DNA of 23,645 nt from contig CAVVOP010000013.1 in assembly GCA_963749915.1 (NCBI GenBank), forward strand, positions 1-23,645, written 5' to 3'. The position numbers were made by a program, and so were the translations under genes. Under the pieces are notes generated by a model that saw only the letters and a program-made list of their open reading frames with translations, ran no database searches and was not told the origin of the DNA. Source of the DNA: an uncultured cyanobacterium. GTDB lineage: Bacteria > Cyanobacteriota > Cyanobacteriia > Cyanobacteriales > Cyanobacteriaceae. Below, in pieces: positions 1,026 through 19,419 of this stretch (within the stretch, counting starts at the first letter, position 1; every line of letters begins with the position of its first letter).

Positions 1026-3683
1026 TCAAGATAAATCTTGGCCCACTATGACGTTATCGTTATCACCTTGTTGGGCTATATTCTTCTTCAGCAATCCCGC
1101 CATTTCTGCTGACATTAATTTAAGGGATATTTCTATATTTTCTTTTGCTTTCACCATATCTCTGGCTGCATTTATAATATTTTCTACAAGCTTCCAGTCA
1201 TCTGGAATTGGAATTAAAATCGAGGATATATGCTTCGGTTCCAGATGTTGTTGAACAGAACCATACTCGTTTCTGATCATCTGATCATATCCTGCAAACG
1301 ACTGTAAATATGCGTATACGTAAAGGCGCAACTTTTCATCAGAAATTCTTACACCAATCATATCGTCAGAGACAATCACTCCTACGAGCTTTTTAGTTGC
1401 ATAGGCTACACGTCCAATTGTCCCAGATCGCGTAACTAAAATATCTCCATGATTGACCCTTAAAGCCTTGATTGTACGAAGTTGATTTGTAGATGCTCGT
1501 GATATATCGATTGGCTTAGCACTCTCAGATTTTTCTTGTAGCACAGCCATTGGTGGATAGTAGAGTTCTGATCCCCTTGAAGCATCATCAACGACCAAAT
1601 TTTCTGTCTTAATTCTTGGCCCTTTAAAGATTGCAACATCCTTTGATATTTGTCCAAGAGTTGATACAGTCCATCCGTCAATACCATCTATCTCTTCAAT
1701 TCCTTTAATTGTCCTGTTTAAGTTAGGAAGATAGAATTGAGGGTTTATACACAAAGTTTCACTTAGATTTGTTCGCTCAACGGAAAATCTATATTCTGAC
1801 TCCTTCAGAGTATTTTTTTCAAAATCTCTATAATCAGATAATATTTCGTTCAAATCATGATTGATAATATCTGTCTCTGTATTCTTATCATCGCGCTTAA
1901 ATATTGGAATACCTTCGCTATCTTGTCCAACTTTTTTAGAAACTCCCATAAAAATAGAATAATTTGTGCTAATTTTCTCCCCCTCTTTTGGGCGATAAAT
2001 AAATACCAAGCAAGTTCTTACACCCGTATGTGGTTGAAAGGTGTTTTTATGGCAATTTACAACTGCTAAAAGTTTGTATCCATTGAACAATTGCTTTCGT
2101 GCGGGATAATAAGTTGTTGTGTCTAAAAAACTTTTTGGCATTACTATCCCAATTTTTCCACCAGGTGATATCCATTTAAGGCAACGCTCAAAGAACAGCA
2201 TTTCAGGTGGAACTCCATCATCTATAATTTGTGAAGTAAACTCAAACTTACCTTCCACGTTCTGTCCACTTCATCCCACAAGAGTAATTGTCTAGTATTT
2301 TCTTGTCAGTGATCCTACCTTCACCAACTCCACCAAAAGGGGGATTAGTAAGTATTATTGTAGGCTTACCTTCACCAGCACGAGCTATCACATGATCGTC
2401 AAGTTTAGCAAAAAGCCCAAGACTATCTCCTTGCGTCATGCCTGCGTGACCATCGCCATTTAAAATCATTGCAGTTTTTGCAATTTTCACCAACCGCTTG
2501 AGCTTTGCTCAATTATAAACAAATTTGTTCTATGTTTATCTAATGCGCGCTCTTTTGATATTTTTGTTCCAGTACCTGTAAGAATATTCTTTCGGATAAA
2601 GCGCATAGCAACTGTAAGAAATCCACCTGATCCACCCGCAGGATCAAGAATAATATCCCTATAATCAGGGTTTAAGATGGCTACCATCAAGTCAATTACT
2701 GGACGATTGGTAAAAAATTGCCCCTGTTGCCGCTTTAGATATGAAGCTGTATATTGCTCGTATGCGCTTCCCATTATGTCCCAATCATCGGAGTCATGGA
2801 GATTGCTTAACAACCTAAAACTTTGCAGTTCATTCACCACGTCACAAATAGCACGCTCCCCAACAGTAATTCGCTCAGTTTCACTAAATACCAATGGATT
2901 GGTAGAAACTGCTTCCTTAAACAAGTTTTGAACTCTCAGAGCTACAGATTTACGTCCTGCATCACTACCATACTCTTCTGGAGTGCAATAAATATCAGGC
3001 ATCTCTTCAGACTTCTCCTCATCTATTGCTTTGGCAAGAATCCGACGAATCATATCCATTGTTAAATCATCCTCATCACCATCAATCCCTCTACCATGCA
3101 ATTTGTTATGGCAACGACGAAGTAATCCTTTTATGTCTTTGGGTCTTAATAAATCTGACTTATTTCTGCGCCTAGTCCAATCCCATACCTCCCCGTTACG
3201 AGGTAGCCCTGTCCAATCGATTAGAATGTTTGAAGGGTTACTAAGTCTACGAAAATACTTAACATTGTCACCGTTGAACCATGCTGCACCATTTGAACTA
3301 GTATTGAAAATATATGAAACTAATTGGTTATAACCATTTGTTTCGCTAGGAGCCTTGCACTCTACAATTATGTCAATCTGACCTTGGTTTCTTTCCTTAC
3401 AGGCTTTGGGGTTATTGTAAACTACAATATCTGCTCTTACTGGGTTTCCTTCTTTGTCTTTTACTTCACTTCTTCCGTAGTAAATTGGAACTGTACGAGG
3501 ACGAACACTTTTAGGGTAATTATATTCGTAGTGAAGTGTTCTCAAGTACAGTTGCCTAACATATTCCTCAGGTTTTGGTTCAAGTTCAATAATTGAAAGA
3601 AAGTCAACAATCTTTCCATTTTCGTTTAGCGGTATATCAAATGAATTCTGAGGATTGCCCATTTTCAAGTTTAGTGTTTCCAA
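1026..3683 (-). pseudogene. Fused restriction endonuclease / N6-adenine methyltransferase / specificity-domain protein (type IIG/IIB-like), split into three ORFs by two frameshifts (~2490, ~2255)
   Basis: N-terminal HsdR_N-like PD-(D/E)xK (PEEYVRQ...RADIVVY...IIVECK); GQFFT; motif I ILDPAGGSGGF; motif IV NPPF in 2248-2493; HsdS-like C-terminus (GDILVTRSGTIG, GSVQQHLEPKHISSILIPIP). Confidence 0.85.
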
Positions 3684-4125
3684 CTAGTAAAGTTTTTATG
3701 CCTAAATTCTAGGGTCTCGCCATAATTAAGTTAAGAGGTGCAGGACTAACCCAACATAAATATATACAATCTATGACATCTACAACCAACTATCTTGCTT
3801 ACCCAATCTTGGCGAAAACAGATAGCTTCAGGAGAGGGATCACTTTTCAGCATAACTATTTATTATAATGAAACTTTCTGGATAACATACCAAATAGTTA
3901 TATTATCAAGAAATATTCTGTATATCAGATTATGGTTAAAATCTACCAAAAAATTTCTTATAAATTTATTTTATTCAATATAAGTATAAGTAAAAAACCA
4001 TTACCGAGATATTTTTCTTAATATAAATATATATTACCCATACATTTTTTAATATTACCTATAAATCTTTTTCTCTAAAAACACTATAATTACTTAATAA
4101 ATTTTAACAATTTCTGTGTGAGGAA

Positions 4126-4352
4126 ATGTCAAACTTAATATTCATCGAAGCTCGTGGTGGGTTAACTACGGGTGAAACGCTTTTAGAGTTAATTAATCAA
4201 TATCCGCAAGGCTGTACTATAAAACATCTCAGTAAAGCTATTAACCGCCCTGTTAGTCAATGATTAACTTATCCCTCAAGGCATTGATTAGTAACAAACA
4301 GGTTAAGGTAAAGCTGATGGGAATGCAGAGATTGATTTATCCTAGAGTTTAG
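4126..4352 (+). pseudogene. Small winged-helix DNA-binding protein, frameshifted
   Basis: GAGG then ATG 4126: MSNLIFIEARGGLTTGETLLELINQYPQGCTIKHLSKAINRPVS, continuing in another frame as MINLSLKALISNKQVKVKLMGMQRLIYPRV*. Confidence 0.55.
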
Positions 4353-4366
4353 TTTTATCTGAAGTC

Positions 4367-4624
4367 TTAAATATCTCCTTTATAACTCGATGACCAACCA
4401 AATAATTTTCGTAGGCGTTGAGAAGGATTAAATTTAAACACTGTACTATCCCTTTTTCCTTCAATATAAAATGTTCCAAAATTTCTTAAATTGACACTTT
4501 CTTTATCTTTTAAACAATCATATATTTCTTCTAAGGTGGCATTAACAATTTTTTCGACAATCTCATCTTTTTGATTAATTTTTTCAGCAATACGTTTTAC
4601 TAATTCTTTCTGATTAATAGACAT
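4367..4624 (-). CDS. HU/IHF-family DNA-binding protein with shortened beta-arm
   Basis: INQKELVKRIAEK...V.LRNFGTF...FKFNPSQRLR matches the HU body; the RNPxTG arm is absent. Confidence 0.8.
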   Translation of the reverse strand: MSINQKELVKRIAEKINQKDEIVEKIVNATLEEIYDCLKDKESVNLRNFGTFYIEGKRDSTVFKFNPSQRLRKLFGWSSSYKGDI

Positions 4625-5193
4625 TTTATTTCTGTGGAGTCTCCATAAAACCTAAATGTTTCTAAATATCGATGACGAATCGAACCACAATTAACATTTT
4701 CCTCGACTTCAATACTTATAGTCGGAGATAACAAACTATAAGCTACTCTCCATTGACTATTCCCGACTAATACACCAGCCGTTTTCGGATTGAGTTTAAT
4801 GACTTCACCAAACAGTTCATTTCCTTGTTTATCTTTGAAACAAACGTGGTCACCAACTTTAATATGATTTTTGTTAGTTTTTTGTTTCGCTTTAAGATTA
4901 ATGTCAATATCTAAATTATCGATATTTATACAACAATAAGGAATATTCCATTGACCTCCATCATGTTGATTCTCAATCAAAACTTTCGTTGTTTTTAGTT
5001 GAATGATAGTAGCTTTGATTAAACGATTTTCTGTTAGATCAAAATAGCTAATTAATTGACCTACTTTGAGATGATTTTTAATTAAACTTAACCTAATAGG
5101 ATCATTTAATTGTTGATGAATAGCCACATTTAATCTATATAAGTCGAATAATGAGGCTTTATTTAACTCCGTTATTATTGCTGTATAATCCAT
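4600..5193 (-). CDS. Hypothetical protein with two SH3/KOW-like repeats
   Basis: Likely ATG at 5193 (MDYTAII). Repeated LKVGQLISY...W.IPY and IKVGDHVCF...WRVAY segments. Confidence 0.7.
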   Translation of the reverse strand: MDYTAIITELNKASLFDLYRLNVAIHQQLNDPIRLSLIKNHLKVGQLISYFDLTENRLIKATIIQLKTTKVLIENQHDGGQWNIPYCCINIDNLDIDINLKAKQKTNKNHIKVGDHVCFKDKQGNELFGEVIKLNPKTAGVLVGNSQWRVAYSLLSPTISIEVEENVNCGSIRHRYLETFRFYGDSTEIKCLLIRKN

Positions 5194-5206
5194 ATTTCTC
5201 AAATAT

Positions 5207-5463
5207 CTAAATATTAAGAGATAACTGACCAATAAGGATATTACCTTTACCGCCTTGATGATATTGGAGATGACAGGTATTGCATAAAGCTACTAAATTC
5301 TCTACTCTGTTATCTTCTGGTATTCTGTTCCAGTGGTGTACTTGCAGACAGTTACCCCTAGTTGATTTTCCTTAAAGTCTGCACCGCAGTTACTACACTT
5401 CCAGTTTGTCTTCTCTTTAACTGTTGTGGCTATCTCCTGCCAATCTTTACTATATCTGCTCAT
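5207..5463 (-). pseudogene. HNH endonuclease, one frameshift
   Basis: MSRYSKDWQEIATTVKEKTNWKCSNCG... then LQVHHWNRIPEDNRVENLVALCNTCHLQYH...GQLSLNI*; CxxC, HH-N-H and CxxCH motifs. Absent from the ORF track. Confidence 0.8.
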
Positions 5464-5522
5464 AAATCACCCTAACTCTCTCAGTCCATTGTAGGGCTTA
5501 TTTCTTACGAATTTAATAGAAT

Positions 5523-5609
5523 TGCGTCTCAATCGCCGTTGCTGTCCGTCTCGGTGGGGATTCTGTTTGTGGCTTTGTCTGGGTTGTTTCCGTCACCGTT
5601 GTCCGTTAA
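5523..5609 (+). pseudogene. 3' remnant of an adenine-depleted gene paralogous to 15519-15803
   Basis: Translates CVSIAVAVRLGGDSVCGFVWVVSVTVVR*, matching SAVAVRSCPAVAGCWVVSVPVV. Only two A in 5533-5606. A T-run follows at 5628-5635. Confidence 0.65.
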
Positions 5610-5943
5610 GTGTTTCTCGTTGGGGGCTTTTTTTTATCTTTCTAATAAGTGTATTAAACTTTACATTACTGGTAAAATACTTTAATTTTGGTTCTAGTAC
5701 TTTACTTAGTAAATTATTTTACAACTACTCTTAAATACACTTAGTAAAACACCAATATTTGAATAATCACAAATCCTTATTCTAAAAGACATAAAGCCTC
5801 ATATCTTCTCTTAAAGTACATATCTACTAAATCAATTAAAAGGCTAGATTAAATTGCTTATAAAAAACTTAATAATTCATTTTCGTACTTTCGCAGTTTT
5901 CATGGATAAAATGAAAAAGTATGAAAATTGACGAGATCATATT

Positions 5944-6540
5944 ATGAATGACATAGAAAATAAAAATACAATAGAAATAATCGAAATAAGTGCGGAAACA
6001 CATAAACGTATTACGGAAGTGACCGAAATAATCGGAGTCAAAAATACAACTCTTTACAAAGATTTAGAGTTTTTAAAAATTAGCACAATTAAAGATAATG
6101 AGAATCTTTCTTGGATTAGTAATGAAGATTTCGAGAGACTTTTGCTATTAAGGAAGTATATAGAAATTAATGGTCGTAGAACAGGATTTGATGAGAAAAA
6201 AATGGGTGAATTAGTAACTGTAGAAAATAATAAAATTACTAATAATAGTAATAATGGAAATGGTCAAATAAGTAATCAAGAAATCTATGTTACTCCTGAA
6301 GATCCCAAGGATAATATGGATTTAGATAATATTGTGAGAAAGGGTGCTGAATTAAAGGCTCGTGAAATTGCTATGCCTCATTTAGTTGTCAGGGCGATCG
6401 CTGATAAATTGGAAGAACATGAGTTACCTGAAGATTTACAGGAAAAGATTGAGGATGCGAGGGAAGCAAGTAACCCAAAGTTTACGCCGTCGGAGGTGGC
6501 GGATTCAATCTTGATGAGTTATCGCCAAAACTTAGCTTAA
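5944..6540 (+). CDS. Hypothetical plasmid protein, possible N-terminal HTH
   Basis: Intact 198-aa ORF; ITEVTEIIGVKNTTLYKDLEFL is HTH-like; contains a HIP1 site. Confidence 0.7.
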   Translation: MNDIENKNTIEIIEISAETHKRITEVTEIIGVKNTTLYKDLEFLKISTIKDNENLSWISNEDFERLLLLRKYIEINGRRTGFDEKKMGELVTVENNKITNNSNNGNGQISNQEIYVTPEDPKDNMDLDNIVRKGAELKAREIAMPHLVVRAIADKLEEHELPEDLQEKIEDAREASNPKFTPSEVADSILMSYRQNLA

Positions 6541-7353
6541 ATGATGACCAGTTAAACAAGATAGTTCAAATACTTAAAAATAGAACTAGTTTAATTATTA
6601 TTGCGGAAACGGGAAGTACTGAATACCTACCAGAATATTTATTCTGTTCTTTGGCTGATTATTACTCCTGTGCGATCGCCACCTATAAAGGCAGTGCTAA
6701 AAAGTTTATTGAAAAGGTAGCGTTTGATTTAAGCATTGATACCACAGAGCCTAAATTTAACAATAAGGGTGATTGTACTGGTGAGCGACGACTTACTGTG
6801 GATGAACTGAAGGAGGCGATCGCCGAATCATGTGATGAAGATACTACGATAATTATTCCTTTTGCTAATCGTTTACCAACGTCAATTAGATATTGGTTGG
6901 AGGATTTGATGAATATAGGGGTAACTATTTGTGCGATCGCTAACAATAATCCTTGTAAAGATATTTTCCTAGAAATGCTGGAGACTGGAGTTAGATTTAC
7001 CCAAGGATAAGCAGATTCGGGAAATAATGAAGGATGAAGCCCAGAGGTTGGGGTTGAGTTTGAGCGATCGCAAATTAGCTGAGTTACAATCTTATGTAGG
7101 TAAGAATCCGATGTTAGCCCGTAAAGCTATTCAGAATGAGTATCTGGGACTGAATAAACAAAATCCTCAGCATACCCAATATGTGGTGATTATGCCGATA
7201 ATTATTGCTATTTTGATGGGTTTTGGCATCGTTAGATTTATCGGTCTGGGAACAGGGAATAAGTCACTTTATATCTTTGGTGGTGTCACACTTGTGGCAG
7301 GAATGACTTTAAGGCAGTTAGGTAAAGTTTCAGGAGCGAGGAGGAAACTATAG
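6474..7353 (+). pseudogene. Degenerate P-loop ATPase-like protein with C-terminal membrane helices, frameshift near 6984
   Basis: Frame open from 6474 with no ATG. IIIAETGSTEY resembles an eroded Walker A. Removing one base joins IFLEMLE to LELDLPKDKQIREIMKDEAQ. Two hydrophobic segments at the C-terminus. Confidence 0.55.
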
Positions 7354-14489: not shown

Positions 14490-15442
14490 ATGACAAGCAT
14501 TCAGCCAATTCGACCCAATATTACCTTTTTAGCTCCCGTCTCCTCAAAGGTGGATTGGGAAAGGGTTGTTAGTGACTGGATTAAAACAAAGCGATCGCAC
14601 CATACTCAACGGGCATATTCAAAGGATCTAAACTACTTTTTAGCCCATGAACAGGGTTTAACGGTGGAGAATTTTCTCAGGGATAGCCACCTGCCTACGA
14701 AATTTCCTCTCGTTATCGGGGAAGACTCATCGAACAAGGCAAAAGCGGTGCTACCATTAACCGAAGGCTATCAGCTTTAAAATCCCTCACCGCCTACTGC
14801 TACCAGTGCGGACATTGTGAATTTACCCTCGAAGCTGTGAAATTGGAGAAGTTGAAAACTTATCGGGATACTTCAGGTATCGATGTTACTACCTATAAAG
14901 AAATCCTAGAAATCTGCGAACGTACTACGATTCGAGGGCTAAGGGACTATGCTATTCTCACCCTGCTTTGGTCTAATGCTTTGCGTCGTTCGGAAGTGTC
15001 TAAGTGCAATGTGTCGGACTTTAATCCCCAAGGGCGAACTCTAAAAATCTTTGGTAAAGGTCGAGGAACTCAATCAGAAATCATCACCCTGGGGCAATCA
15101 ACGGTAAAGGCGATCGCCAACTATCTTGAAACTCGAATAGCTTTACCCCATGAGCCATTATTTGTTGCCCACAAACCAGGTTATGAAGGTAGGCGACTAT
15201 CAACTAATTCTATTTATAATATTGTCCGCACTCGTGCTACTGAGGCAGGAATTACTAAGGTGATGAGTCCTCACAGGGTAAGGCATAGTGCCATTACTAC
15301 TGCTCTCGATGTCACTGGGGGAGATGTGCGACGGGTGCAGAAGTTGAGCCGTCATAGTAATCTTAATACTCTGATTATTTACGATGACAACCGTATCAAT
15401 GCCCAAGCCCAAGTAACGGAACTACTGGATGGGTTGGTGTGA
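14490..15442 (+). pseudogene. XerC/D-like tyrosine recombinase, frameshift near 14690
   Basis: N-terminal SHHTQRAYSKDL, then ATINRRLSALKSL in the second frame; catalytic R (NALRRSE), K (GKGR), HxxR (HRVRHS), H (LSRHS) and Y (IYDD). Confidence 0.88.
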
Positions 15443-16217: not shown

Positions 16218-16568
16218 ATGTCTAAACAAGCCTGGCTTCTCTTTATTGATGGCCGTATTGCTCAGGAACAAGGTGATATAGACTTAGCATTGCTGAAAAT
16301 TAAGCAAGCTCTCGATATCACCCCATCAAATCCTTCTTTCTTACGTGCTTATGCTTCTGCTCTTTTACAGAAAGCAAGTTCTTCATCTGCAACCGGTTCT
16401 GACATTGAAAACAGATATCAGCAACTGGCTGCTGAATTGGCGTTCGCCTCTGAGTCTGACACACCCAACAACTGGATTCCTGCTCTTGAGGAACTCAAAC
16501 AATCCCTAGAATCAGCCCCACTTCCTGCTCCTGGTGCAGCCGCGTTAGTATCGGCCGTAGCTTGGTAA
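16218..16568 (+). CDS. TPR-like small protein, putative precursor with C-terminal core AAALVSAVAW
   Basis: GGAG upstream; AWLLFIDGRIAQEQGDIDLALLKIKQALDITPSNP is TPR-like; ends LPAPG-AAALVSAVAW; directly upstream of a radical SAM gene. Confidence 0.75.
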   Translation: MSKQAWLLFIDGRIAQEQGDIDLALLKIKQALDITPSNPSFLRAYASALLQKASSSSATGSDIENRYQQLAAELAFASESDTPNNWIPALEELKQSLESAPLPAPGAAALVSAVAW

Positions 16569-16604
16569 ATGCGGGTATCGTGACTTAATATAAGCGAAAC
16601 AAAC

Positions 16605-16649
16605 AGAAAAACACGATACGATGTTTACTACATCATTACGTGTTTTTCT
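16605..16649 (+). terminator. Stem-loop between putative precursor and radical SAM gene
   Basis: AGAAAAACACG...GATGT-TTACT-ACATC...CGTGTTTTTCT. Confidence 0.55.
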
Positions 16650-16698
16650 ATCCTTCATTGATCAATGGTAATAAGGTGCATAGAAATATCTTAAAATA

Positions 16699-18117
16699 AT
16701 GAAACTTCAACATGGACATCTAATAGCATTTGATAGGTTTATGCCAATTTATAATTGGTACTACCCCATATATAATACTGTTTACGACACCCAATTAAGT
16801 AATCCCTGGGATATTTATTCACATGTCAATATTGAGGGAATTAATAGTAGAGCACTTTATATTCATATTCCATTCTGCGAAACCATATGTTCGTTCTGTC
16901 CTTTTTCACGCACAACTTTTGCCTCTTATAGCAATGTCAAGAGATATGTTGAAGCACTTATTAAAGAGATCACTTTAAAGTGTAAACATAAAACAATTAC
17001 AAATATCCCGATCTCTGCGATTTATTTTGGGGGTGGAACCCCATCTGTTCTAGAACCTGACGAGATTATTTTAATTGGTCGGGTAATTAGGGATAACTTC
17101 GATCTCTCACAATTATCTGAATTTTCCTTCGAGTTTGAAGTCAAAAGTGTCTCAAAGGATCGAATTGATGCGCTCAAACAAATCGGTGTTACCCATGCTC
17201 GATTTGGGCTACAGACTTTCTCAGAGAAATATAGGAAACTATTCAATCTTACGTCATCATTAGAGCAAATTTATGATGCTTCATCAACACTCGTTGAAAA
17301 TTTCGATTACGTGTCCTTCGATATGCTCTATGGCATGCACGGCCAAACTGATGAAGAGTTTGTGGCTGACATCATACAAGCTACAAAAATGGGAACGAAT
17401 AATATAGATTTCTATCCAATTAACAATCTTGTCACACAGGATATATTACGAAAAAACTATGATAGGGATGGTTTAAAGGCAAGTAATGGTCTACGAAAAC
17501 TACACCTGAACGTGCTGTTAAGAGAATATTTAGCGAAACTTAATTTCTTTCCCCATAATGGTCATGGCTATGTTAGAGATGGATCAGGAAACAATGTGAA
17601 GAAAGAGTGCATAACTACCGATAAATACATCTTCAACTATCATAAACATGTCTACGGATACAGTGATACAGATCTTCTCGGATTTGGAAATGGGTCCATA
17701 TCATCTTTCTCAAATATTACAGTCACAAACTGTGATGATCGTGAGAAGTATATTGATAGTATAAATAGTGATCGAATTTTTTATCAAGTTGGTGAACATG
17801 AGCATGGTGCGTTTTATAACAAACCAATCACGATGCATTTACCTTATTTTGGATACCTTGATAAAAATTTAGTCAACTGGAACAATGTAAACCCATTTAT
17901 TATTGATAGCTTGGAAGAGCTTAAAAAGTATAGGCTTGTTTATGAAAACGAAAACGATTTTTATCTAACATTTATCGGATGGCTTTGGTATGTAAACCTA
18001 TTTTATTATCTTTCATCACCATGTGAGCGTCTCGGACTTGACATGCTAATTAAGCGTTTCCAAGACGAAATATCATACAATCCAAGTGAGGAGTATGAAA
18101 TAAAAATCCCGCGCTAA
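16699..18117 (+). CDS. HemN/HemW-like (class C-type) radical SAM enzyme
   Basis: LYIHIPFCETICSFCPF (CxxxCxxC), YFGGGTPS, RFGLQTF, FDMLYGMHGQT and LLGFGNGSIS. The N-terminus has PIYNWYYP where HemN has PRYTSYP. Confidence 0.92.
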   Translation: MKLQHGHLIAFDRFMPIYNWYYPIYNTVYDTQLSNPWDIYSHVNIEGINSRALYIHIPFCETICSFCPFSRTTFASYSNVKRYVEALIKEITLKCKHKTITNIPISAIYFGGGTPSVLEPDEIILIGRVIRDNFDLSQLSEFSFEFEVKSVSKDRIDALKQIGVTHARFGLQTFSEKYRKLFNLTSSLEQIYDASSTLVENFDYVSFDMLYGMHGQTDEEFVADIIQATKMGTNNIDFYPINNLVTQDILRKNYDRDGLKASNGLRKLHLNVLLREYLAKLNFFPHNGHGYVRDGSGNNVKKECITTDKYIFNYHKHVYGYSDTDLLGFGNGSISSFSNITVTNCDDREKYIDSINSDRIFYQVGEHEHGAFYNKPITMHLPYFGYLDKNLVNWNNVNPFIIDSLEELKKYRLVYENENDFYLTFIGWLWYVNLFYYLSSPCERLGLDMLIKRFQDEISYNPSEEYEIKIPR

Positions 18118-18135
18118 TTAACATGTTCTACTGGT

Positions 18136-18747
18136 CTATAACATAGGTGGTTGTCCAGTTGGCCCTTGAGCAGAGGGGAGTTTCCTCAATATCTTTATAA
18201 ATTCCTGTGAGGAATATAGTGTTCCATATTTCAAATAGTCTAGATATTGCTCTGGAGATTTAACGAGTAAGATATTATTTCGGGAATTCTCATTCAGCCA
18301 AAATGTATGCATATGAAACTCTGGTATTAGTAATAACCTGACGACTGGATCTCCAAGGACATTCCTATCTACCCAATCAGTCGCCTTTGAAATAGCTCTA
18401 CTAACCTGTGAATTGGACGAGACTCGTAGGACAGACCAGTCAGAAGATTTGTCATCATTTGGTGGTCGTGTTTCTGCGAAGCTAATATCAGAGTCATCAA
18501 TTGAGATTTGGTGATGCCAATGATTTAGAGGTTTAACATAGTTCCCAAAGGAACCACTATCTAATTTTAGGGAGTAAACGCTACATTTGAAAGTCCAAAT
18601 AGATAACGTTTCCTTTATTTCAGCCTCCGGCAGAGCTCCTCCTGGTGGTGGAAGGAAATCCTTTCTTATTAGTGGATTCAGCCGTTCTCCAATTAGCGGT
18701 GCAATTATGTCAATTGCATTATCTGGTAAGGTATCTGTGTGTGTCAT
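18136..18747 (-). CDS. Hypothetical protease-partner protein
   Basis: Intact 203 aa, 21 nt downstream of the protease. VRLLLIPEFHMHTFWL resembles an uncharacterised family I recall next to papain-like proteases. Contains LPPPG. Confidence 0.75.
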   Translation of the reverse strand: MTHTDTLPDNAIDIIAPLIGERLNPLIRKDFLPPPGGALPEAEIKETLSIWTFKCSVYSLKLDSGSFGNYVKPLNHWHHQISIDDSDISFAETRPPNDDKSSDWSVLRVSSNSQVSRAISKATDWVDRNVLGDPVVRLLLIPEFHMHTFWLNENSRNNILLVKSPEQYLDYLKYGTLYSSQEFIKILRKLPSAQGPTGQPPML

Positions 18748-18768
18748 AAATCAGTTGCGTACTCTTTT

Positions 18769-19311
18769 TTAATTAGATGTAATATTAGTGTATGTCAATA
18801 CCCAATCTCCAAGATCATATGCCGATAAGACATATTCATATGAACATCGACTAGTTTCAAACCATGGATCGTGAACCTCTACATCACCATTAGAATAGTA
18901 ACCTCTAACGATTGCAACATGAGAATTACCACTATTCCAGAGAAAATATGGCTCAATCGGTTGTCCAACATCTAACTGATCTTGTAGTTCATCTTTACTC
19001 AGTGCTCGCTGCACTCTATCATATTTAATATTCCAATTTGAATACGATCTATCAGGCCATCTAGCCTGATTACAAGAACTTGGCAGCGGATTTTGATCAA
19101 GTGGACATTGATCCCCGAGCTCAAATGATACAATCTGCTCCTGAGTAACATTATTTATCCCATAATGAATAAAAACCATTTCACAGCAAGCAGCCCAACA
19201 CCAATTAGTCATATTTTGTTGTCGGTATGGAATTGCTAAAATAAGATCTATACTACCTGGTGGTGGAAGAGATGAAGGAATCTTCTTTCCTGACGAAACC
19301 TTTAGTGGCAT
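18769..19311 (-). CDS. Papain-fold cysteine protease (C39-like / AvrRpt2-like)
   Basis: IPYRQQNMTNWCWAAC (oxyanion Q, catalytic C), SHVAIVRGY (H) and VHDPW (D); no signal peptide. Confidence 0.88.
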   Translation of the reverse strand: MPLKVSSGKKIPSSLPPPGSIDLILAIPYRQQNMTNWCWAACCEMVFIHYGINNVTQEQIVSFELGDQCPLDQNPLPSSCNQARWPDRSYSNWNIKYDRVQRALSKDELQDQLDVGQPIEPYFLWNSGNSHVAIVRGYYSNGDVEVHDPWFETSRCSYEYVLSAYDLGDWVLTYTNITSN

Positions 19312-19419
19312 AGTTGGAATTTCTTAGAATATAAGATTATTGAAAATAATCTTATATTCTAGATCAAAATCGTTCATCTTTTATTAAAGATGGTTCCGCT
19401 CCAAAAAACGCCAGATAAG

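Follow-up and report, generated by a model that had tools for sequence, protein, structure and literature searches.

A staphopain-like protease, a free-standing pro-region-like partner and a likely peptide precursor carry a common Pro-Gly motif in a cyanobacterial four-gene island

The stretch of DNA analysed here, called the window below, is the whole of a 23,645-base contig (CAVVOP010000013.1, assembly GCA_963749915.1) from an uncultured cyanobacterium. Our subject is an island of four genes within it, arranged as two convergent pairs: a 116-residue open reading frame (ORF), likely a peptide precursor, followed by a 472-residue radical S-adenosylmethionine (SAM) enzyme on the plus strand, and a 180-residue cysteine protease followed by a 203-residue partner on the minus strand. 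Three of the four proteins contain the motif LP[PA]PG, which is likely a real processing tag acting as a Gly site, and the reading that we favour is that the protease and its partner probably constitute a split prostaphopain, with the motif as the site at which the protease cuts, after the Gly. The features concerned are:

16218..16568, plus strand: ORF of the likely precursor, 116 residues, with TPR-like N-terminal helices, a Pro-rich linker and a C-terminus ending in AVAW
16521..16535, plus strand: LPAPG, precursor residues 102-106, with a putative cut after Gly106
16536..16565, plus strand: AAALVSAVAW, the core predicted to be released
16699..18117, plus strand: HemN-like radical SAM enzyme, 472 residues (PF04055; the best NCBIfam models, HutW/HemN, all fall below cut-off)
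18136..18747, minus strand: partner, 203 residues, a free-standing protein resembling the staphopain pro-region, as judged from its relatives, structure model and predicted complex
18163..18171, minus strand: partner Ala193-Gln194-Gly195, predicted from complex contacts to lie over the catalytic Cys38/His131 of the protease
18640..18654, minus strand: LPPPG, partner residues 32-36, in a loop modelled between a helix (11-30) and a strand (42-53)
18769..19311, minus strand: papain-fold cysteine protease, 180 residues, with Gln32, Cys38, His131 and Asp148 (PF13529 and PF12385 above cut-off)
19255..19269, minus strand: LPPPG, protease residues 15-19, closing a disordered N-terminal extension, with a putative self-maturation cut after Gly19

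The three motif sites had been reported in a first-pass annotation made from the sequence alone, each with a small residue behind it, and we find them as described, followed by Ala in the precursor, Gly in the partner and Ser in the protease; the C-terminal 10-mer of the precursor is likewise as given there. The six frames of the window hold these three matches to LP[PA]PG, all in the island, and among the 3875 ORFs of at least 100 residues in the genome (1.25 million residues) the same three are again the whole yield, against a composition-based expectation of 1.9. A rough estimate puts the chance of finding the tag in three of the four island proteins at 1e-10 for the exact motif and 7e-6 for a loose [PA]PG[GAS], figures that are overstated because the motif was chosen after it had been seen. 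The protease and partner copies are, moreover, encoded by the same 14 bases (chance ~0.02 under their own codon use) between unrelated flanks, and therefore the copies may not be independent and possibly go back to one copying event.

The protease scores 34.9 bits against PF12385 (C70; cut-off 19) and 40.3 against PF13529 (C39_2; cut-off 24), and its Gln32, Cys38, His131 and Asp148 are invariant in 24 aligned sequences, taken from 27 matches. Its structure model is confident (predicted local distance difference test, pLDDT, 90) apart from the poorly ordered residues 1-20. By VIA-align the top match is staphopain C (Z 17.7, root-mean-square deviation (rmsd) 2.3, 153 residues aligned), ahead of C39 domains (Z 15.5-16.1) and AvrRpt2 (Z 11.3); Foldseek E-values do not separate the three. 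In the VIA-align superposition residue 1 of mature staphopain falls on residue 18 of the model, beside Gly19. The first-pass annotation had placed the protease's tag just before the catalytic domain, and a Gly-ending tag does stand there in most close relatives, the Pro- and Ala-rich linker containing PG in 20 of the 24 aligned proteases (the island protease counted, and one sequence being without that region). A single-query search found the protease in none of 60 relatives. Relatives keep Cys at positions 58, 69, 70 and 80, of which the island protease lacks 58 and 70 and retains 69 and 80, a joint loss expected if the four Cys form two pairs.

The partner matches nothing in Pfam or NCBIfam. 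A profile-free full scan yielded 405 relatives at E<=1e-3, where a word-index search had recovered only the query itself. The best match of its model (pLDDT 92) is prostaphopain B residues 42-193 (PDB 1x9y; Z 8.6, rmsd 4.7, 134 aligned), with the next at 6.0; Foldseek too ranks prostaphopain B first (E 6.5e-3), and an Atlas comparison gave 0.77 to a cluster in which 27% carry PF14731. Taken alone, the match is suggestive of a prostaphopain pro-region fold rather than strong, but the protease, compared independently, also points to staphopain. The predicted protease-partner complex scored 0.90 against 0.01 for the best control, passing a mark that was reached by 116 of 157 solved pairs and 2 of 215 mismatched pairs, with the runs agreeing in >=97% of contacts and the partner at pLDDT >=87. 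In this predicted interface residues 1-16 of the protease touch the partner, whose own contribution includes residues 191-197, and partner residues 193-195 contact protease residues 35, 36, 38, 130 and 131.

The partner profile matched in two of the 400 other genomes searched from the phylum, in 0/401 and 0/301 genomes of two other groups (at 1e-10) and in none of five named handles; viral and phage collections held nothing relevant, and plasmid searches with a partner relative and with the gene neighbouring the cassette at locus L098 came back empty. In P0228, P0236, P0178 and P0122 it is joined to other domains (membrane-type, patatin and Ycf66_N), and the eight longer matches that were scanned contain no peptidase domain.

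The protease and partner form a widespread, portable two-gene cassette. In the best 80 of 277 metagenome loci confirmed from the protease profile, a partner gene comes after the protease gene in 15 of the 16 top-ranked loci and in 33 of all 80 (E<=1e-10). Better evidence for a shared tag than any covariation between these two proteins is, as far as sequence comparison goes, the recurrence of the tag in unrelated third genes. At L100 (near copy L099), a lanthipeptide-type cluster at 1473-7300 of that locus contains kinase, HopA1-family and LanC-like genes and a 344-residue precursor, followed by a protease with SAPG-A and its partner; the leader of the precursor ends in VAPG-G, and its 16 near-identical Thr/Cys units are linked by 15 GPG-G joints. 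At L098 the protease has APPGA, the partner DAPG-A and the next gene APPGA (expected 0.003); at L097 SAPG appears in the protease and in the next gene (expected 0.026), at the same place in a gene homologous to the L098 neighbour. At L168, from the same order as the host, the tag is of another type in all three genes, the protease having DTLG, the partner ESLG and an adjacent 128-residue gene DSLG (expected 0.012), and the near copy L169 is alike. Co-variation of the motif across three genes was the check that the first-pass annotation had named, and the joint switch to [DE][ST]LG is evidence of that kind. The 128-residue neighbour was tried as a relative of the island precursor and rejected as unrelated.

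Other cassette surroundings vary. L095, L097 and L098 share homologous lipoprotein-like genes (~520 residues, no Pfam match) after the cassette, in which the tag follows a hydrophobic segment; the L095 copy is cut off before the site. The deeper loci L116, L119, L129, L135, L149 and L167 adjoin proteins of ~1000 residues, a CHAT-TPR protein at L116 and proteins similar by their ends at the rest, and at the short loci L088-L092, L094 and L103 no gene stands out as cargo.

On the other strand, the radical SAM enzyme has many relatives at 42-50%, yet its matches in the PDB at 1e-10 are HemN and NocN only. Tyr54 and the CxxxCxxC cysteines Cys60, Cys64 and Cys67 are invariant in 41 sequences, and the Tyr lies six residues ahead of the first Cys, a spacing like that of Tyr34/Cys40 in NocN, for which the relevant section of PMC12871812 describes addition of a carbon to an indole. 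Searches for the enzyme found it in one of 400 further genomes from the order and, at 1e-90, in none of 170 further genomes from the phylum. We surveyed 22 family loci, setting aside L004, which is cut off, and the duplicate L178. In 16 of the 22 a short ORF with a terminal Trp lies <=900 bases upstream of the radical SAM gene, one of these ORFs ending in AVAW; L083 is doubtful, and L012 shows no Trp end. The 15 distinct Trp-ended peptides that were profiled have a Phe 15-17 residues before the Trp. The end class [AGVS][AGVS]W, found in 3 of 3867 ORFs of the genome, covers 12 of 15 precursors of the family and is shared by the island precursor. A precursor beside its maturase with a core kept across loci, the hallmark of a RiPP (ribosomally synthesized, post-translationally modified peptide), is seen through the 16 Trp-ended loci and the common end class, and from these comparisons the enzyme likely modifies the region of the precursor's C-terminal Trp. 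Residues 4-57 of the precursor match TPR models weakly, all below Pfam cut-offs.

Sixteen loci of the HemN-like family (L002, L003, L005, L008, L009, L082, L084 and L179-L187) have unannotated precursors of 23-25 residues with a Phe near position 8 and a C-terminal Trp, often with SpeD and MFS genes and sometimes with ornithine decarboxylase-like or P450 genes. A SpeD-like gene is present in 10 of 13 radical SAM loci with long flanks; the host has one, on another contig. P0298, considered as a precursor-radical SAM fusion, proved to be a joined SpeD-radical SAM protein. At L174 (6032-9944), a relative at 36% stands beside a B12-dependent radical SAM gene, and two genes upstream of it a TIGR03067-like 151-residue protein ending in SQW is a candidate for a second long precursor.

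We propose the following scenario. The partner would grip residues 1-16 of the protease and pass its C-terminal tail, with Gly195, across the active site, thereby keeping the bound protease folded and off. Because the cleft is filled in the predicted complex, the cuts in the protease, partner and precursor probably occur in trans. Cleavage of the protease after Gly19 would sever the N-terminal tether, and cleavage of the partner after Gly36 would free partner helix 1, so that activation might be switch-like. The active protease would then cut the precursor after Gly106 and release AAALVSAVAW, whose Trp end would have been modified by the radical SAM enzyme before release, most likely by addition of a SAM-derived carbon to the indole. 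The steps are not equally secure: that the protease is specific for the tag seems likely to us, the cuts after Gly106 in the precursor and after Gly19 in the protease are each nearly as well favoured, and the cut in the partner loop, the weakest step, stands a little short of an even prospect.

A number of observations weigh against this scenario. The exact LP[PA]PG is not kept among relatives, LP.PG occurring in 1 of 149 partner relatives and there at another position in the chain. The tagged partner loop, residues 29-37, is not among the predicted interface residues and is variable (PG in 19, LG in 22, another Gly in 45 and no Gly in 19 of 105 aligned relatives), and the good score of the complex may in part reflect likeness to solved prostaphopain. 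In a covariation set of 31 loci, from which L085, L086, L100, L149 and L169 (duplicates or near-duplicates), L133 (broken) and L168 (missed by the pattern) were dropped, PG is present in the partner loop at 9 of 14 loci with a PG protease and at 1 of 17 others (permutation p 0.003); 13 of the 14 belong to one branch, however, and a control loop appears to covary too (p 0.007), and therefore neither the Fisher nor the permutation result is independent proof. The matching words at L097, L098 and L168 were chosen by eye, the L100 units are Gly-rich and contain GG as well, the neighbour at L104 has LPAPG-A beside a protease without PG, and most of the deeper cassette loci show no shared tag. As for the peptide side, the family leader profile misses the island precursor, whose C-terminal 30 residues rank 71st of 1682, and three actinobacterial radical SAM loci are without a Trp-ended peptide. 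That the precursor retains the family leader, with its Phe 15-17 residues before the Trp, was rejected by the profile test. The cassette is present in 0 of the 22 radical SAM loci (9 of which have only ~1.5 kb of flank) and the radical SAM gene in 0 of 86 scanned cassette loci besides the window's own (many <3 kb), so the suggestion that the motif ties both operons into one system found no second locus to bear it out.

The alternative closest to our proposal keeps the tag as a genuine site in precursor and protease alike and takes the partner as an inhibitor or chaperone that is not itself cut, with LPPPG as a mere copy or decoy in its loop and Gly195 as the Gly that matters for function. Residues 191-197 lie inside the predicted interface and the tag loop outside it, Gly195 persists in 91 of 105 aligned relatives as against 19 for the loop PG, the two tags share their 14 bases, and 5 of the 14 PG proteases are paired with a partner whose loop lacks PG, all of which suits such a role. 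An exposed loop is, on the other hand, what a protease acting in trans would cut, and the partner's tag follows the protease's at L168, as LG, and at the 9 PG loci; on balance we think this alternative unlikely. As regards the first-pass view that one specificity drives the self-, partner and precursor cuts, the sharing of the tag with neighbours elsewhere agrees with it, but pro-domain or inhibitor describes the partner better than plain substrate does, its conserved active-site Gly being Gly195 rather than that of the motif.

That the Pro/Gly words are clade-typical flexible turn linkers, that the cassette and the radical SAM operon came to adjoin by chance on a mobile element and that host peptidases trim the precursor would fit the frequency of P-x-G turns in partner loops, the failure of the two halves of the island to occur together in any other cassette or radical SAM locus scanned, and the family precursors that elsewhere have no such protease nearby. 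We regard this as quite improbable in view of an exact five-residue match in an AT-rich genome whose other ORFs lack it, its position exactly 10 residues from the Trp end, and the recurrence, at four further loci, of a tag common to the protease and unrelated neighbours. Equally hard to credit is a signalling or defence switch, in which the TPR-like domain, once rid of its modified hydrophobic tail, becomes active or changes place, with the 10-mer left over as a by-product: by eye the island shows neither an exporter nor a signal peptide, other cassette neighbours are large (lipoprotein-like at L097/L098, CHAT-TPR at L116) and the element is phage- or plasmid-like, but the tail resembles the free 23-25-residue precursors of the radical SAM family, and PADLOC returned no match for the precursor, partner or protease and one weak match for the radical SAM enzyme.

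Two further features accompany the island genes:

16605..16649, plus strand: stem-loop between the precursor and radical SAM genes, with 20-nt arms, 85% complementary (spacer folding z -2.3)
19325..19361, no strand assigned: inverted repeat of 17 bp without mismatch, its end 13 nt ahead of the start codon of the protease gene

The region of the inverted repeat folds with z -6.5, none of 200 shuffles being as good, and the repeat might control the protease, either as an operator or as a 5' RNA hairpin. Rfam gave no match. An RNA-library run covering 5% of words gave one 225-nt contig identical to 16241-16465, which is not evidence of transcription, and no contig over the other three island genes. 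In a Pfam scan the contig carries integrase, SSB, Gp157 and restriction-modification genes and is therefore taken as a plasmid- or phage-like element; by its genes the host looks cyanobacterial. The tyrosine integrase beside the island (14490-15442) seems divided between two ORFs, one N-terminal and SAM-like and the other catalytic, the restriction-modification gene at 1026-3683 (HsdR_N, N6 methylase, specificity domain) seems broken into three ORFs, and the segment 15480-15880 is GC-rich, with strong A/C skew and overlapping ORFs, unlike the remaining contig.

If the split-prostaphopain reading is correct, one may tentatively go further and regard the cassette as a mobile, general maturation switch, its recognition word placed in the tether and in the pro-domain, with processing of whatever cargo has acquired that word (a multi-core lanthipeptide precursor, a lipoprotein-like protein or, here, a TPR-fused precursor). 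In this island it would mature the first member of an undescribed RiPP class whose C-terminal Trp is modified by a SpeD-linked HemN-like enzyme. The specificity of such proteases, of PG and LG types, would then be readable from DNA alone, so that cut sites could be predicted from sequence across a protease family that is uncharacterised and counts at least 405 partner clusters; peptide-maturation proteases would gain a new type, one that stands alone and has a separate pro-domain, and compact enzymes specific for Pro-Gly or Leu-Gly, each with its own off switch, might serve as tools. It would also expose a widespread HemN-like family with tiny Trp-ended precursors, whose chemistry we did not find in the literature searched. 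No paper on the cassette or on this HemN-like family was found in that literature, which covers few subscription journals, and the portions of PMC10114718 and PMC9062424 that bear on the matter name no such family.

Among known systems, staphopain and prostaphopain B (C47; PDB 1x9y, 8oig) provide the best VIA-align matches of both the protease and the partner models. The staphopain pro-region blocks the cleft and is inhibitory. It is covalently N-terminal, whereas in the island it would be a separate gene downstream of the protease, an order repeated in the cassette loci; identities are 12-16%, the island proteins show no signal peptide by eye, and unlike staphopain the protease has a short N-terminal extension predicted to tether the pro-region.

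AvrRpt2 (C70, PF12385; PDB 6hqz) had been offered as the precedent for self-processing at a shared motif. The island protease passes the Pfam C70 model and has the Cys-His-Asp set, and AvrRpt2 self-processes at a site resembling its substrate sites, with a consensus that the relevant section of PMC5091034 gives as PxFGxW. A Pro followed by a Gly is common to both; the consensus itself is unmatched by LP[PA]PG-[AGS], and staphopain is closer in fold (Z 11.3 for AvrRpt2). AvrRpt2 is, furthermore, an injected effector that needs host cyclophilin, in contrast to a protease with a dedicated partner gene. The C39 peptidases of peptidase-containing ATP-binding cassette transporters (PCAT; LahT, ComA) and the C1A enzyme PoyH have the papain fold in common with it (6mpz, Z 16.1), and cleavage by these enzymes likewise follows a Gly, that of the GG/GA/GS closing the leader (PMC10885120, section 4). 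The island protease differs from them in being a stand-alone 180-residue ORF whose island lacks a transporter, in having Pro at P2 and in the absence of a helical double-Gly leader; the same section of that review names C39, C1A and C96 and, within it, no C70 or pro-domain-paired enzyme.

LicP and CylA are self-maturing lanthipeptide proteases, as we propose for the island protease, and self-cleavage of LicP to an active leader-removing enzyme, as described in the pertinent part of PMC6054071, is a precedent for a self-cleaving maturation protease; both are secreted subtilisin-type serine proteases with a covalent pro-sequence, unlike the island pair. The class C radical SAM enzymes NosN/NocN and TbtI are HemN-like, with CxxxCxxC and the SAM-II stacking Tyr, as is the island enzyme, and NosN adds a carbon to an indole; the island has no thiopeptide genes, the apparent substrate is a short Trp-ended peptide, and the family is SpeD-linked. 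Since neither the consensus of AvrRpt2 nor the transporter fusion of PCAT enzymes nor a covalent pro-region is present, we file the system under no known class: it would combine self-processing like that of LicP and AvrRpt2 with a Gly cut like that of C39.

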